Positions 12,624-58,789 are shown, numbered from the whole stretch's first letter. The stretch is 63,500 bases of DNA, filler included, from Octopus bimaculoides (GCF_001194135.2; 5 parts of 5 records of this genome joined end to end with filler, not necessarily neighbours in it), one strand, 5' to 3'. A program made the numbers and translations. Notes: generated by a model not told the origin, from the sequence alone.

Positions 12624-12823
12624 AAATAGAGATATTAATATTTCTAAATCTTTCTAAAGGAGACTACGGCAGCGGTACTGGATATTAATACTTATCACCA
12701 AGCCAACATGGCGATGGCCTCTTGGAGCTAATCAACGGCAGCATTTGTCCTATTTTTCGGACTGCCAGTACCGCTGCCGTAGTCTCCTTTGGAGAGATTT
12801 AGAAATATTAATATCTCTATTTT
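12624..12823. repeat. Inverted repeat with about 58-bp arms (12624-12681 / 12765-12823)
   Basis: aaatagagatattaatatttctaaatct..c.aaaggagactacggcagcggtactgg versus its reverse complement, about 2 mismatches. Confidence 0.9.
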
Positions 12824-12910
12824 TGAAAACCAGTGGATGTTTTCCACTGAATTTAGGTAAATAATCCTTCGTACAGATGGTCAGTAGCCACGTCTGCTGG
12901 GTTCGGCTGC

Positions 12911-12952
12911 TCTACGTTGATAAGGGGCAATACTCCGAAACTAGTCTGTAGA
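12911..12952 (+). ncRNA. Type I hammerhead ribozyme, U3:A8 core variant
   Basis: TCTACG-TTGATAA-GGGG caata CTCC-GAAAC TA GT-C-TGTAGA: 6-bp helix I, 4-bp helix II, palindromic ACTAGT helix III, GUC site at 12946. Confidence 0.7.
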
Positions 12953-13119
12953 TGACAGACCAGCAAGGGGAAGCGGCTGACCTCCCCTGTTCGAAGGTTA
13001 TAATGGATACAGGTTCGTGTGTCACATAGCTAGCTAGAGGCGATGGCCTCTTGGAGCTAATCAACGGCAGCATTCGTCCCATTTTTTGGACTGCCATATT
13101 AGCTTGGCGATAACTATTA

Positions 13120-13740
13120 ATATATAATAAATGCTTTTGTCAAATCCGCTTAATTTCAGGGCGTTGTTATAAAATGGTGCTTGTTGTCTAAAGATATCTC
13201 CGTTAGCCGATAAGTTTGACAACCTAATAGAGATAGCTACCACGATGCTATTTATAGTTGAATGGGGATGGTTTGAGGATACATTGATATAATGAAGGGT
13301 TTGGTTCGGTTTCCTATACGGATAGTAGAGTCCGGTATTTAGGTCTAATGTAACGTCAAGAAAATTAGCTACCTTAGGGTTGATATAAAAAATTATATCA
13401 AGGTTATAAATTTTTTTATAAATTACTATAAATCATTTTTAAATCTTATTATCGCGGGATTAGAGAGATTGTGTGTGAGAAATAGGGCGTCATCCCTATA
13501 AATACCGCCGAAAGGAACAAGGGAAGCTACTTTTTATCTTATCAAGGAAATACAGACCCACTAAATCAGTGATTTGTGCTGAATCCAACGGGCCCATTGT
13601 TATATCAAATAGGGCCTTGAATTCAGACCTGACCCAGTTTTGGTCGGTATAATTAATTGAAGTCATCCAAGCGGCGTGTATCGATGATTTCGCTCGCAAT
13701 GAGTACTTCTTAATACAGTCCATATATTTAGAAGTATACT
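13120..13740 (-). mobile_element. Penelope-like element reverse transcriptase remnant (Naiad/Chlamys-like motifs)
   Basis: Minus translation FDITMGPLDSAQITDLVGLYFL, then frameshift, GGIYRDDAL (YRDD 13489-13500), NFLDVTLDLNTGLYYPYRKPN...YINVSSNHP...RLSNLSAN...ALKLSGF; stops and a frameshift present. Confidence 0.85.
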
Positions 13741-13824
13741 TTAAAAAATAAACTTTATTAAAAATATAACTTTATATATATACACACATATATGTGTATG
13801 TATGTGTATGTAAACATATATATA

Positions 13825-13988
13825 GGCGCAGGAGTGGCTGTGTGGTAAGTAGCTTGCTTACCTACCACATGGTTCCGGGTTCATCTCACTGCGTGGCACC
13901 TTGGGCAAGTGTCTTCTAGTATAGCCTCGGGCCGACCAAAGCCTTGTGAGTGAATTTGGTAGACGGAAACTGAAAGAAGCCTGTCGTA

Positions 13989-14039
<51 letters not shown>

Positions 14040-14129
14040 GTGCGTATATGTTTGTGTCTGTATCCCCCCAACATCGCTTGACAAACGATGGTGGTGTGTT
14101 TAGGTCCCCGTAACCTAGCGGTTCAGCAA
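13825..14129 (+). mobile_element. SINE family 1, cut by a gap
   Basis: ggcgcaggagtggctgtgtggtaag head, core and internal (TA)n; high similarity to the other copies. Confidence 0.9.
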
Positions 14130-14246
14130 NNNNNNNNNNNNNNNNNNNNNNNNNNNNNNNNNNNNNNNNNNNNNNNNNNNNNNNNNNNNNNNNNNNNNNN
14201 NNNNNNNNNNNNNNNNNNNNNNNNNNNNNNNNNNNNNNNNNNNNNN

Positions 14247-14279
<33 letters not shown>

Positions 14280-15373
14280 AGTATGGAAGTAAATGGTGAA
14301 GCCGTTTTCACGTGATAAGCGATTACACACACATCTCTGTTTTATATACAGTATAGATATATGAGGAAGGAACACTTTTGAGTATTATCATTTATTCCCC
14401 ATTACAAACATTTTATTTGCTAATGGGAATTACAAAATATCCTTTTGGATGATTGTTCTATATTAATTAGCAATCAGGGGTCCTATAGATACCCGAGTGA
14501 GTGAAAAAGAAAACCTAGCAGTACAGAAAGAGGAGAGCGCGTAGGGCTGAAAGTAATAAACTTTCATACGTAATATAATTGACTGCATATATTTTATTAG
14601 AATAAGTGTAGAGATATGGGGAATAAGAGATAGAAGAGTGAGATCTGAACAATTTTCTGTAGAACATTACGTATGGGCCCGTTTAGTAAGTGGAATGTGT
14701 TAATTCATCTAGAATTTCTCAGCTTCTCTTCACTCCTTAGTTCGGATATTTTCTGCAACCTTTAGAAGAGGCACACCCATCCATTAGATGTACGTCTTAT
14801 TTTTACCACTTTGCTTGTATTAAGTGACATTAAATAAGGTAAAATATAGTTATTTTAATATGTTTTACCAATACGAAGCTAAATCTAATATATACACACA
14901 TCTGTACATATGCGTCAGATATATTTACACCAATATTTCAACTTAATATAAGCAGCTAGATCGTATCAACTGCCAAAGGAAACGCTTGTCAGACGTCAGC
15001 CATTTTCACCTGAATTAGAATTGTTCACTAAACTACTTTCAAAAATCAGTTATCCCACTACCACTCTATGAGACATATTCGGTAGAGAGGTATTCTGAAT
15101 TGTTAAAATCGGAATGTCGTAAAATAACGACTTCACATGCCATATATGGGATATACTCTTAGGATATTGCATACTGCAGCTTAGTAACGCTGTTTCCGAA
15201 CGATTGAACAAACTGACATATATACATACAAGCACACATGCATATACTATTAATAGATTTATAAACAAAACATTTAACCTGCAGTTATCAGTGCAAATAA
15301 TTACTTGATCAAGAGTATATTATATATCTCCTTTTATAATAATAATAATGCACTTTATGCTCACTTTTAATGT

Positions 15374-15432
<59 letters not shown>

Positions 15433-56366: not shown

Positions 56367-56749
56367 GTGGAGGCGCAATGGCCCAGTGGTTAGGGAAGCG
56401 GACTCGTGGTCATAGGATCGCGGTTTCGATTACCAGACCGGTAATCGATTACCTCAGCACACCACAGACACATGTACCCTGAACGTAGTTCTCGGGGATA
56501 TTCAGCGTGACACAGAGTGTGACAAGGCTGACCATTTGAAATACAGGCACAACAGAAACAGGAAGAAAGAGTGAGAGAAAGTTGTGGCGAAAGAGTACAG
56601 CAGGGTTCGTCACCACCCCCTGCCGGAGCCTCGTGGAGCTTTAGGTGTTTTCGCTCAATAAACACTCACAACGCCCGGTTTGGGAATCGAAACCGCGATC
56701 CTACGACCTCGAGTCCGCTGCCCTAACCACTGGGCCATTGCGCATCCAC
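56367..56749. mobile_element. Convergent twin SINE family 3: plus-strand head (56367-56441) joined to a 3'-truncated minus-strand copy
   Basis: The two tRNA-like heads are 75-bp inverted repeats with 6 mismatches. Confidence 0.9.
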
Positions 56750-56898
56750 TGGATATAGGAATATATAGATATGAATACGCTGAAGCTAGGACAAACAAAT
56801 ACAAATCAAGAGAAAATGAACGACACTGTCTTAAAGAATTATTATTATTGCTGTTGTTGATGTTGATATTGTTATTATTATCATTATTATTATTATCA

Positions 56899-57228
56899 TT
56901 GTTCAGTAGTTTTATTTTTATAACGTGCTTTCACTTCACTACCGAGCGCAGCTCTGTGCGCCTTGAGTATGTGCTGTGGTTTGCTGTGGTGCTCTTATGT
57001 TTACTGTATTGAAAGTGTTTTGCGTAGAATGTGTGCAGTACCCAGTAGTGCAATTTTCTTTATGTTATATGTATTTGTAAGTCCTGGTGTTTTTGTTATG
57101 TATTTGTCTGAATATTTTTTTATTATACCTAAGGCACCTACTATGATAGGAATTGTTTCTGTTTTTAGATTCCACATTCGAGTTATCTCTATTTCCAGGT
57201 CTTTGTATTTTGAAAGTTTTTCCATTTC
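56899..57228 (-). mobile_element. R4/Dong-like 5'-truncated copy
   Basis: ORF 57001-57225 MEKLSKYKDLEIEITRMWNLKTETIPIIVGALG...ALLGTAHILRKTLSIQ*; (AAT)n-like tail; homologous to 5276-5680. Confidence 0.9.
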
Positions 57229-57385
57229 TTCTTCTTCTTCTTCTTTTTCTTCTTCTTCTTCTTCTTCTTCTTCTTCTTCTTCTTCTTCTTCTTCTTCTTC
57301 TTCTTCTTCTTCTTCTTCTTCTTCTTCTTCTTCTTCTTCGTCTTCTTCTTCTTATTATTATTATTATTATTATCATCATCATTAT
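57229..57385. repeat. (TTC)n then (TTA)n/(CAT)n microsatellite
   Basis: Directly visible. Confidence 0.95.
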
Positions 57386-57859
57386 TGATAATATTATTAT
57401 TTGTGTTAGATGTGAGAATTGAAGTAGATTGGATTAGCACTTTCGTTAAAAAGCGAAAAAAAAAAAAAAAAGATTAGACGTCGAAGGTAAAACCAAAAAC
57501 TGGTGGGATATTGAGTGATGAAAGGCGACTAAAGAATTGTCAAATTCATTCTAATGAGTCAGCACGTCGACTAGAATGTGTACACAAAAGATTAAACCTA
57601 CTGTTATGTAAAAGCAAGTGAATATATTTCTGTATTATTATTTGAAGATCCTTATTTTTTTCTTGCTGTTGTTAAATATTCAGCGTTGATTCTAACGTCA
57701 GTGTAGTTTTTACACCAAATATCATTATCACATGTATGTGGATATTTTGAGAGTGTATCATTAATGATTGATATATTAAGGCGTGTTATTACACAATTAA
57801 TGTTATGTTACGCGCGTTAAAATAATAACAACAACAACAACAACAACAACAACAATAGT

Positions 57860-57914
<55 letters not shown>

Positions 57915-58066
57915 TTAGTAATAATAATAATGGAGTTTACGGACTACTTTAGAAAGTGGCAGATAGCATTTTGATATTTTTATGTACATTTATGAATAAA
58001 TGTTCACACATACACGCAGAAACGCTTGCACACAGACAAGTACAATCATACAAACACACATATACA

Positions 58067-58100
<34 letters not shown>

Positions 58101-58157
58101 CATGCATACATACATGCATATACACATATATATGTGTGTATATATATATATATATAT

Positions 58158-58257
58158 NNNNNNNNNNNNNNNNNNNNNNNNNNNNNNNNNNNNNNNNNNN
58201 NTTAATTAATTAANNNNNNNNNNNNNNNNNNNNNNNNNNNNNNNNNNNNNNNNNNNN
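58158..58257. other. Artificial scaffolding spacer N44-TTAATTAATTAA-N44
   Basis: Identical 100-bp construct. Confidence 0.95.
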
Positions 58258-58290
<33 letters not shown>

Positions 58291-58789
58291 TAATCAACGG
58301 ACATGTTAAAGTGTCTACCCACTAGAAATATGAGTTAAAACCCTCATTTGGACCATAAACAAATTTTAACACTGAAAGTAACAGATTCAACAGTATATGG
58401 GAGAGTGAACTGAAAAAAATCTCTCACCTACTTATATAGCATAAAGCTGTATATTTAATGGAACAGGTATATATGAGGACCAGTTTTTGATTTGATACAA
58501 AGATCTTACCTTCTTCAGCACGTCTTAACTCTTCGAAACATCTTCAAAGGGTTAAGGTGTGCTGAAGAAGGTAAGATCTTTGTATCAAATCAGAAACCGG
58601 TCCACATATATACCTGTTCCATTAAATATACAGCTTTATGCTATATAGGTAGGTGAGAGATTTTTTTCATTTTGCTTGCTCATATACTGTTGAATCTGTT
58701 ACTTTCAATGTTAATATTTTTTAGTGGTATAAATGAGGGTTTTAACTCTTATTTCTAGTGAGTAGAAACTTTAATGTGTTCTTTGATTA
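58291..58789. repeat. 500-bp fold-back palindrome (about 247-bp arms, about 5-nt loop) with outward-facing hammerhead motifs
   Basis: Left 58291-58537 is the reverse complement of right 58543-58789; inner part near-identical, outer part more diverged. Confidence 0.95.
58557..58607 (+). ncRNA. Type I hammerhead motif
   Basis: GTGTG-CTGAAGA-aGGT...ATCa-GAAAC CG GT-C-CACAT; palindromic ACCGGT helix III, GUC site at 58602; helix II imperfect. Confidence 0.6.

Follow-up and report, generated by a model that had tools for sequence, protein, structure and literature searches.

Each of the five fold-back repeats analysed here is very probably a 5'-truncated and now dead insertion of a Penelope-like element (PLE) or of a non-autonomous derivative, with two 3' repeats standing head to head and covering parts of a hammerhead ribozyme. 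They lie in a 63,500-nucleotide stretch of Octopus bimaculoides DNA (the window), and each family would be of PLE origin. The fold-backs are most likely a known by-product, as the pattern has already been published for rotifer and schistosome PLEs. An initial annotation had left two options, palindromic elements that are mobilised as such or by-products of template switching at the ribozyme; we regard 'by-product' as the correct one of the two. Template switching at a cleaved ribozyme end is not supported, since all arms start upstream of the cleavage triplet and the distance from fold to core varies from a few to more than 150 nt.

The five fold-backs and their hammerhead cores

By self-BLAST of the window the inverted repeats 16728-17201, 38980-39233, 39813-40180, 49876-50022 and 58266-58815 were recovered, together with 12624-12822. 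Arm identity was 87.2% at 17 kb, 77.6% at 39 kb, 84.9% at 40 kb, 93.7% at 50 kb and 88.7% at 58.5 kb, where 28 of 247 sites differ. In 45 pairwise local alignments among ten fold-back pieces, the only strong cross-match was that of the 17 kb right arm with a solo copy at 18225 (score 115, shuffle maximum 26); five other pairs reached p 0.02-0.05, none above its own shuffle maximum. All five fold-backs are real and their families are mutually unrelated, as initially annotated for those at 17, 40 and 58.5 kb. The arms are as follows.

16731-16894, minus strand: 17 kb left arm, hammerhead homologue with core from ~16844 to 16770, cleavage triplet gone
16895-17033, plus strand: 17 kb spacer of 139 nt, candidate 5' extension of the right arm
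17034-17198, plus strand: 17 kb right arm, near-complete type I core 17084-17159
38980-39094, minus strand: 39 kb left arm, retaining just the 3' half (39083-39076) of a minimal core, with (TA)n on its outer side
39130-39238, plus strand: 39 kb right arm, which follows a (TACA)n spacer, starts within the core's 3' half and has (CA)n on its outer side
39813-39974, minus strand: 40 kb left arm, core from 39968 to 39881 broken at C3 and U4
40021-40180, plus strand: 40 kb right arm, complete core 40027-40114, (TA)n 16 nt farther out
49850-49945 (arm proper 49883-49945), minus strand: 50 kb left arm, ~30 extra nt, then (TA)n
49946-50015, plus strand: 50 kb right arm, 3' half of core 49949-49963, (TA)n immediately after
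58291-58545, minus strand: 58.5 kb left arm, core from 58518 to 58478 broken at G12, adjoining (TA)n and an assembly gap
58543-58894, plus strand: 58.5 kb right arm, complete core 58562-58602

Cores were scored with an 18-point type I descriptor against 200 shuffles per piece. The right-arm cores at 40 and 58.5 kb scored 18/18, matched by none of the 200 shuffles, and that at 17 kb scored 17/18, reached in 2/200; the core of the solo copy was also 18/18. On the inward-facing strands all scores were at chance. The type I core annotated on each of these three right arms was thus found complete or, at 17 kb, near-complete, whereas the mirror core annotated on the left arm is homologous but broken in 3/3. 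At 17 kb AAG stands where the triplet GTA is expected, in the register set by the third copy; at 40 kb the mirror core reads TGGATGA (16/18, 28/200 shuffles), and at 58.5 kb AAAAC replaces GAAAC (15/18, 134/200 shuffles). In the other two fold-backs (38980-39238 and 49878-50020) no more than the GAAAC (3') half of a core is present, so that 0/5 have two intact cores.

The helix II region measures 57 nt in the 17 kb right arm and 69 nt in the 40 kb right arm. The hammerheads were not recovered as Rfam covariance-model matches: the 150 top-ranking of 197 matches in the window included none, and neither did a search of three short stretches with E allowed up to 10, one of which held the 18/18 motif at 12917. 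Folding z-scores of single arms were unremarkable (-1.36 to +0.50).

Fold points, ends and further copies

The fold had been annotated as lying close to helix I. This is so at 58.5 kb only; the arms are 139 nt apart at 17 kb and 46 nt apart at 40 kb. The 39 and 50 kb fold-backs, described as turning around at the GAAAC palindrome, both contain the GAAAC half, but at 39 kb the arms are separated by ~35 nt of (TACA)n. At 58.5 kb the arms overlap by 3 nt (58543-58545), and the left arm crosses the fold and is 8 nt longer at its 5' end. Further copies, including a fold-back at 33 kb beyond those annotated, were informative on the ends.

18225-18364, plus strand: third member of the 17 kb family, standing solo; its core (18250-18327) is complete, helix III is palindromic, and (TA)n follows
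32790-33040, minus strand: 33 kb arm A, longer 5', without a 48-nt end piece, half-like core only
33036-33325, plus strand: 33 kb arm B, carrying the 48-nt end piece and 92% similar to A
33326-33620, minus strand: 33 kb third copy C, facing B tail to tail, with a short run of TA between them

In the 17 kb family the three copies have one 3' end in common; this end is fixed and the 5' ends are variable. The 17 kb spacer weakly resembles the sequence upstream of the solo copy (17/500 shuffles as high) and, on this likeness, is possibly a 5' extension of the right arm. Its reading as a minus-strand endonuclease end was rejected, having neither profile nor Pfam support and fitting the plus strand better. 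No one-sided tail was seen at 17 kb.

At 33 kb, arms A and B overlap by ~5 nt and the spacer is the 5' extension of A (0/500 shuffles). Copy C has this extension in common with A and the end piece in common with B. The 48-nt end piece, present on B and C and absent from A (0/500 versus 330/500 shuffles), is one-sided with the third copy in agreement; the core there is incomplete. A type I or III hammerhead was rejected for the 33 kb motif, the descriptor score being at chance. Judged from its two arms, the 50 kb fold-back has a candidate one-sided tail in the ~30 nt outside its left arm. In all three orientable cases (58.5, 33 and 50 kb) the loop-crossing arm has no outer extension.

Of the ten outer ends of the five fold-backs, five have a microsatellite within 20 nt, against 3.0% of random positions, a control of random positions and not of the ends of other repeats. 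No target-site duplication over 7 nt was found at the fold-backs.

Copies of the 58.5 kb family, and of this family only, were collected as contigs from two DNA runs of two studies (378 and 365 contigs, 289 and 275 of them less than 95% alike). In the two runs 11 and 10 contigs extend 5' of 58543 into common sequence unlike the left arm, and right-arm homology reaches ~58877-58894, ~90-105 nt beyond the mirror end at 58789. The 15 of 26 joints listed include four strand switches, at four different places, and two that go back as in tandem copies. With many diverged copies extending beyond both the fold and the mirror end, this family does not have the palindrome as its mobile unit, contrary to the first of the two annotated options.

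Relation to PLEs and origin of the fold-backs

A complete sense type I core was found within 400 nt after the ORF at 31/56 intact PLE loci from metagenomes, in a scan admitting mismatched or odd-loop motifs, and an antisense one at 1/56. A model built from 27 of the 31 motifs matched the solo copy of the 17 kb family (E 1.8e-4); the annotated link to PLEs and their hammerheads is supported. The arm motifs were not significant (58555-58609, E 1.4; 17077-17166, E 2.9), and the 40 kb arm was absent from the 20 matches listed for this model. At one PLE locus (L013) an inverted truncated copy lies beside (TA)n, just upstream of the 5' repeat and ORF.

With a profile of one PLE clade, no PLE protein remnant was found in or beside the five fold-backs; at their length, the arms would not be expected to contain RT or GIY-YIG sequence. 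ORFs over the arms gave no Pfam family among 118 ORFs scanned, and among the 30 matches listed between the window and 77 PLE loci there were simple-repeat matches only. A comparison of the arms with 3' repeats from 30 PLE loci was set aside: one sense match (50 kb right arm with locus L059) was at 0/100 shuffles, and it was not used because one antisense match was also at 0/100 among 28 tests. Elsewhere in the window the following features were found.

12624-13122, plus strand: partial tandem unit in which 12711-12767 repeats 13040-13096
13121-13681, minus strand: broken PLE reverse transcriptase remnant (E 8e-38)
34736-34765, minus strand: solo complete type I core, without inverted partner in the window (PLE-derived model E 3.1e-5)
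37627-37776, minus strand: weak remnant of the C-terminal part of a PLE endonuclease (iE 4e-4 with the profile, E 0.004 with tblastn)

The tandem unit contains one complete U3:A8-variant hammerhead at 12917-12946 (18/18; PLE-derived model E 0.065) and a 30-nt end piece, with inverted copies at 12683-12712 and 12624-12682. It is adjoined tail to tail by the reverse transcriptase remnant, in whose relatives the RT is followed by a Cys linker and a GIY-YIG-type end. The inverted repeats 59741-59859 and 44746-45491 (transposase-bearing) have no hammerhead core and were not counted among the fold-backs.

In rotifer PLEs head-to-head inverted pLTRs are the commonest arrangement, with a palindromic junction and a one-sided tail (PMC3846280), and PLE insertions have been described with an inverted 5'-truncated copy and a 30-40 bp tail (PMC8557442). 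Schistosoma mansoni has dual minimal hammerheads on opposite strands, 100-700 bp apart (PMC4209133). Two start sites are used by the PLE protein, which cuts both strands and extends them without requiring cleavage by the ribozyme (PMC11167929). Searching by title or abstract start, we found no published work on such octopus hammerheads, nor on Penelope inverted repeats and RNA editing in octopus.

In the insertion that we propose, the PLE endonuclease would cut both strands of AT-rich or microsatellite DNA, and at each cut end reverse transcription of uncleaved element RNA would begin at one of two sites, with the tail included or not. Both copies would stop early and be joined via 3-5 nt of microhomology; the arms would drift afterwards, with the ribozymes as passengers. 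The fixed 3' end, the one-sided outer extensions, the 3-5 nt overlaps at two folds and the microsatellite flanks support PLE insertion, as do the PLE remnants elsewhere in the window. Against it count that no parent ORF was tied to any arm, that no hammerhead was among the Rfam matches listed and the arm motifs were not significant with the PLE-derived model, and that helix II spans 57-69 nt compared with 10-30 nt in the 31 PLE-linked motifs. Furthermore, the 90-105 nt extension at 58.5 kb exceeds the published 30-40 bp and the short arm there abuts a gap, the clearest tail case (33 kb) is without a complete core, and target-site duplications over 7 nt were not found.

For the mechanism step only, the fold could instead have formed when a single template, either antisense RNA or free cDNA, primed itself through a hairpin, the loop-bearing arm losing its outer end later. 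We consider this a serious candidate, somewhat short of an even chance, and the choice between it and two-ended priming is about even. Such self-priming has been proposed for rotifer Penelope (PMC3846280) and agrees with the self-complementary overlaps at two folds; the 58.5 kb arms also agree at 9/17 family-minority letters, as expected from one template, but these letters fit a common donor equally well. The extension pattern at 58.5, 33 and 50 kb counts against it, because the copy of a target-anchored cDNA cannot exceed its template.

Later inverted duplication of single insertions, by replication slippage or break repair at microsatellites, is very unlikely. Many ends do adjoin microsatellites and the window has core-less inverted repeats too (59741-59859), but the copied parts stop at the element ends with no host flank in the five cases, the 3' end always faces outward, and at each end one arm has element sequence that the other lacks. 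We give equally little credence to re-mobilisation of the palindrome in the 17 and 40 kb families, or to read-through hairpin RNA that routinely silences or edit-marks PLEs of the host.

That ORF-less palindromic elements were the mobilised unit, as fold-back retrozymes, is highly improbable. Outward polarity recurs in several unrelated families and strand-switch joints recur among the 58.5 kb family contigs; against this stand the contigs that pass the fold, the scatter of the switches over four places, the solo single-arm copy at 18225, the broken mirror cores and the lack of RNA over the core.

An equally remote proposal is that the hairpins are retained by the host as a silencing or ADAR-sensitive switch competing with ribozyme folding, octopuses being cephalopods with extensive RNA editing. 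The long double-stranded RNA foreseen by the initial annotation is indeed predicted for a 58291-58789 transcript, as one hairpin of -338 kcal/mol burying the core (0/100 shuffles), but no such transcript was seen. In ~6% of two RNA-Seq runs, from libraries in which small circles can be lost, 11 and 32 reads matched the 58.5 kb fold-back, 0 and 1 of them 99% alike. None covered 58500-58604, the core with its cleavage site, and starts or ends did not pile up. The arms, cores included, carry scattered transitions, transversions and indels, and no host coding exon was recognised among the 118 ORFs. Together with the 3/3 broken mirror cores, this speaks against the switch.

Assembly artefacts are scarcely credible: the 58.5, 17 and 39 kb fold-backs lie near N gaps and no contig piece among those listed spans the 58.5 kb fold, but the arms differ at 6-22% of sites and both DNA runs yielded a 199-nt contig identical to 58622-58820.

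Significance and comparison with known systems

As found, the fold-backs matter little: they are a closely spaced set of insertions of an already published kind. For the question of how PLEs make inverted insertions (PMC8557442, PMC11167929) they are useful as material, a short fold-back preserving in a few hundred bases the fold point, the overlap and the side of the tail. Counted genome-wide, the rule that the loop-crossing arm has no extension would tell two-ended priming apart from self-priming by a hairpin, and cleavage assays would gain new substrates in the long helix II variants.

The fold-backs do not match MITEs or fold-back DNA transposons, as no target-site duplication over 7 nt was found and there is no fixed unit: the 58.5 kb family runs past the fold and the mirror end, and the 17 kb family has a single-arm copy. 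Like non-LTR retrozymes (PMC7229834; bioRxiv 10.64898/2026.07.22.740005), they are ORF-less units of a few hundred bases with a type I hammerhead; the two joints that go back suggest that the 58.5 kb family has tandem copies elsewhere, and the 12.7 kb unit is a partial tandem. Unlike them, they form inverted pairs and not head-to-tail arrays of at least two whole-core units, which are absent at these loci, and no abundant RNA was seen.

With the minimal type I hammerheads of PLEs (PMC4209133) they share a short helix I, an extra or mismatched base at the foot of helix II, a short palindromic helix III, pairs on opposite strands and the U3:A8 variant at 12917. They differ in the 57-69 nt helix II of two families and in that most mirrors are broken.

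The closest counterparts are the insertion units of EN+ PLEs (PMC3846280, PMC8557442, PMC8969392). The octopus fold-backs differ from these in that both copies are truncated to an ORF-less state with no parent ORF identified, in the one extension of 90-105 nt and in the target-site duplication, which was not found. In common are the inverted 3' repeats head to head with a short self-complementary junction, the one-sided extension, the variable 5' truncation and the AT-rich or microsatellite targets. A sense type I hammerhead near the 3' end is present on the 17, 40 and 58.5 kb right arms and the solo copy, and an inverted, 5'-truncated second copy stands head to head, the arms being differently truncated at 58.5 and 33 kb; the 3' ends are fixed, the 5' ends variable, and the target is AT-rich or microsatellite DNA, as in EN+ PLEs.

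Fold-backs and hammerhead cores

The DNA of the window is animal and AT-rich; it contains numerous microsatellites and 18 gaps. Self-BLAST of the window confirmed all five inverted repeats claimed by the initial annotation, as well as that at 12624-12822. We call the two inverted halves of a fold-back its arms, the left on the minus and the right on the plus strand. Cores were scored with a type I descriptor of 18 points (core letters, helix III pair, cleavage triplet and five helix I pairs), with 200 dinucleotide shuffles for each arm as control.

Named fold-backs, with arm identity, spacer as aligned and right-arm core (score; shuffles)
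16731-17198 (17 kb): 87.2%, 139 nt; core 17084-17159, plus (17; 2/200)
38980-39238 (39 kb): 77.6%, 51 nt; GAAAC half of core only
39813-40180 (40 kb): 84.9%, 46 nt; core 40027-40114, plus (18; 0/200)
49878-50020 (50 kb): 93.7%, 7 nt; GAAAC half of core only
58291-58894 (58.5 kb): 88.7%, 5 nt; core 58562-58602, plus (18; 0/200)

That the families are mutually unrelated was borne out in 45 pairwise comparisons, where the sole clear kinship was that of the 17 kb arm with a solo copy at 18225-18364, which scores 18 and sets the core register for this family. A microsatellite was present within 20 nt of 5/10 outer ends of the named fold-backs vs 3.0% of random positions, and no flanking duplication longer than 7 nt was found at the fold-backs. 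The turn of the 39 kb fold-back is occupied by a (TACA)n spacer.

Each mirror copy of the core in the left arm was broken: the cleavage triplet is gone at 16.8 kb, C3 and U4 at 39.9 kb and G12 at 58.5 kb. The inward-facing strands of the arms scored at chance. Of the proposed paired, outward-facing hammerheads, the motifs and the outward polarity are thus real, whereas two intact cores occur in 0/5 fold-backs. Motifs scoring 18 numbered five in the window (12917, 18250, 40027 and 58562 on the plus strand, 34765 on the minus strand) vs one across 8 shuffled windows. Rfam returned no hammerhead among the best 150 of 197 window matches, nor on three short stretches, a result that the initial annotation had named as speaking against its reading. 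Because the 18/18 motif at 12917 was missed too, we infer that the library lacks minimal hammerhead variants.

An additional fold-back, absent from the initial list, lies at 32790-33325 (33 kb), with arms A (32790-33040) and B (33036-33325) that are 92% alike and overlap by ~5 nt; a third copy, C (33326-33620), adjoins. The spacer of the fold-back is the 5' extension of arm A (0/500 shuffles, against 482/500 for the other strand). An end piece of 48 nt occurs on B and C and is missing from A (0/500 vs 330/500). At 50 kb, the right arm extends 7 nt further inside and the left arm has ~30 additional nt ahead of (TA)n. The outer extension was absent from the fold-crossing arm in 3/3 orientable cases (58.5, 33 and 50 kb); loop and extension could not be oriented at 17, 39 and 40 kb.

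Other elements in the window
12624-13122 (plus): partial tandem unit; holds a whole hammerhead of the U3:A8 variant at 12917-12946
18801-20034 (plus): LINE-type retrotransposon remnant (zf-RVT, E 9e-8)
34736-34765 (minus): solo complete core, top match of the PLE-derived model; the window lacks an inverted partner for it
37627-37776 (minus): weak endonuclease C-terminus of a Penelope-like element (PLE)
~37580-37540: possibly decayed hammerhead-like stretch, by eye only, ~45 nt after the 37776-37627 remnant
44746-45491: ~175-nt inverted repeats flanking Tc1/mariner-type transposase remnants (HTH_48, E 5e-6)
59741-59859: short fold-back lacking a hammerhead core; arms 92% alike, spacer of 19 nt
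62073-62174 and 62171-62306: adjacent palindromes, 100% perfect, (TA)n-centred, close to gaps

Within 12624-13122, an untailed end on the plus strand and a tailed end in the inverted copy are both followed by one and the same unit start, an arrangement that would suit a tandem or circular template; the unit is the window's best retrozyme-like candidate. Helix II regions span 57-69 nt in two unrelated families (17084-17159, 18250-18327, 40027-40114) vs 10-30 nt in 31 PLE-linked motifs. The palindromes near 62 kb are probably artefacts of assembly or else arose very recently, and they account for the highest-ranking spurious miRNA matches in Rfam.

The 58.5 kb family

Two DNA and two RNA runs were aligned to 58500-58930 at 80% likeness. 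The DNA runs gave 378 and 365 matching contigs; as 289 and 275 of these were less than 95% alike, the family has many diverged copies. Upstream of 58543, 11 and 10 contigs continue into one common sequence unlike the left arm. The final 8 nt of this sequence recur in the left arm where it crosses the loop; the left arm thus reaches 8 nt further in the 5' direction than the right arm, and the two share an overlap of 3 nt (58543-58545). Resemblance to the family extends to about 58877-58894, 90-105 nt past the mirror end, and the left arm ends at (TA)n adjoining a gap.

Joints found in both runs, with one contig per run each, were 26, and among the 15 listed four switch strand at four different places, two return from 58894 to 58543/58546, tandem-like, and nine skip; the table does not separate head-to-head from tail-to-tail. 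No piece spanning the fold was present among the contig pieces listed for the two DNA runs, so the evidence that the arms adjoin comes from the assembly and from their differing at 28 of 247 sites. An exact match to 58622-58820 was present in both DNA runs. Both arms have in common 9/17 family-minority letters among the variants listed (293 more lie beyond these), which points to a single donor.

In ~6% of each of the two RNA runs, 11 and 32 reads fell on 58500-58930 (0 and 1 at 99% likeness), with no reads over 58500-58604 and no end pile-ups. A read-through transcript, if one is made at all, is predicted to fold into a long hairpin; its retention by selection is unsupported.

Probable link to Penelope-like elements

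With PLE proteins, 77 metagenome loci were retrieved, of which 56 were hand-picked for the core count (one match plus downstream sequence) and 21 excluded. A complete sense type I core lay within 400 nt past the ORF in 31/56 loci, an antisense one in 1/56. These hammerheads resemble those of the 17 kb family in the mismatch at the helix II foot, GAAAC, the short loop and GTH. A covariance model was built on 27 of the motifs; these had been selected partly for their helix I pairing, so covariation in that helix is no independent evidence. The model matched 34729-34772 (E 3.1e-5), the solo copy at 18243-18334 (E 1.8e-4) and 12910-12953 (E 0.065). Scores reached only E 1.4 for the 58.5 kb arm and E 2.9 for the 17 kb arm, and the 40 kb arm was absent from the 20 hits. 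On structure alone, we infer a PLE nature also for the 33 kb fold-back, whose core is incomplete. No parent of any window arm was found among the PLE loci compared.

One metagenome locus (L013, 711-904) has a textbook PLE 5' end: (TA)n, an inverted truncated copy, a hammerhead-bearing repeat and then the ORF. The 7-nt TGAGCAC lies downstream of the hammerhead in 9/30 PLE loci (L009, L010, L013, L057, L075 and others), never antisense; being near the tail region, it is a possible protein-binding or initiation signal.

Origin of the fold-backs and known systems

Most likely, each fold-back stems from a single integration event in which two short 3' pieces ended up head to head. Priming would occur at two ends, followed by microhomology joining of both copies, which would account for the overlaps and for the tail on the non-loop arm. 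In a live rival, a hairpin primes its own extension and one end is lost afterwards; such self-priming has been put forward for inverted pseudo-LTRs (pLTRs) of PLEs (PMC3846280). Template switching at the ribozyme, also suggested initially, is not indicated for a cleaved end, since every arm starts upstream of the cleavage triplet.

In published work, the PLE protein cuts and extends both strands, two start sites bound the tail, AT-rich DNA is favoured and ribozyme cleavage is dispensable (PMC11167929). L1 fold-backs, the subject of PMC11702581, have no part in the argument. Retrozymes are described as tandem and PLE-derived (PMC7229834; bioRxiv 10.64898/2026.07.22.740005). PLE repeats hold minimal hammerheads, with opposite-strand pairs 100-700 bp apart; truncated PLEs are given as the probable source of most motifs, and the U3:A8 variant is described (PMC4209133). 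An inverted 5'-truncated copy and a tail are standard PLE features (PMC8557442, PMC8969392), and inverted pLTRs are reported, most commonly head to head, with palindromic junctions and a 31-bp tail on one pLTR (PMC3846280). The fold-back pattern is already known.
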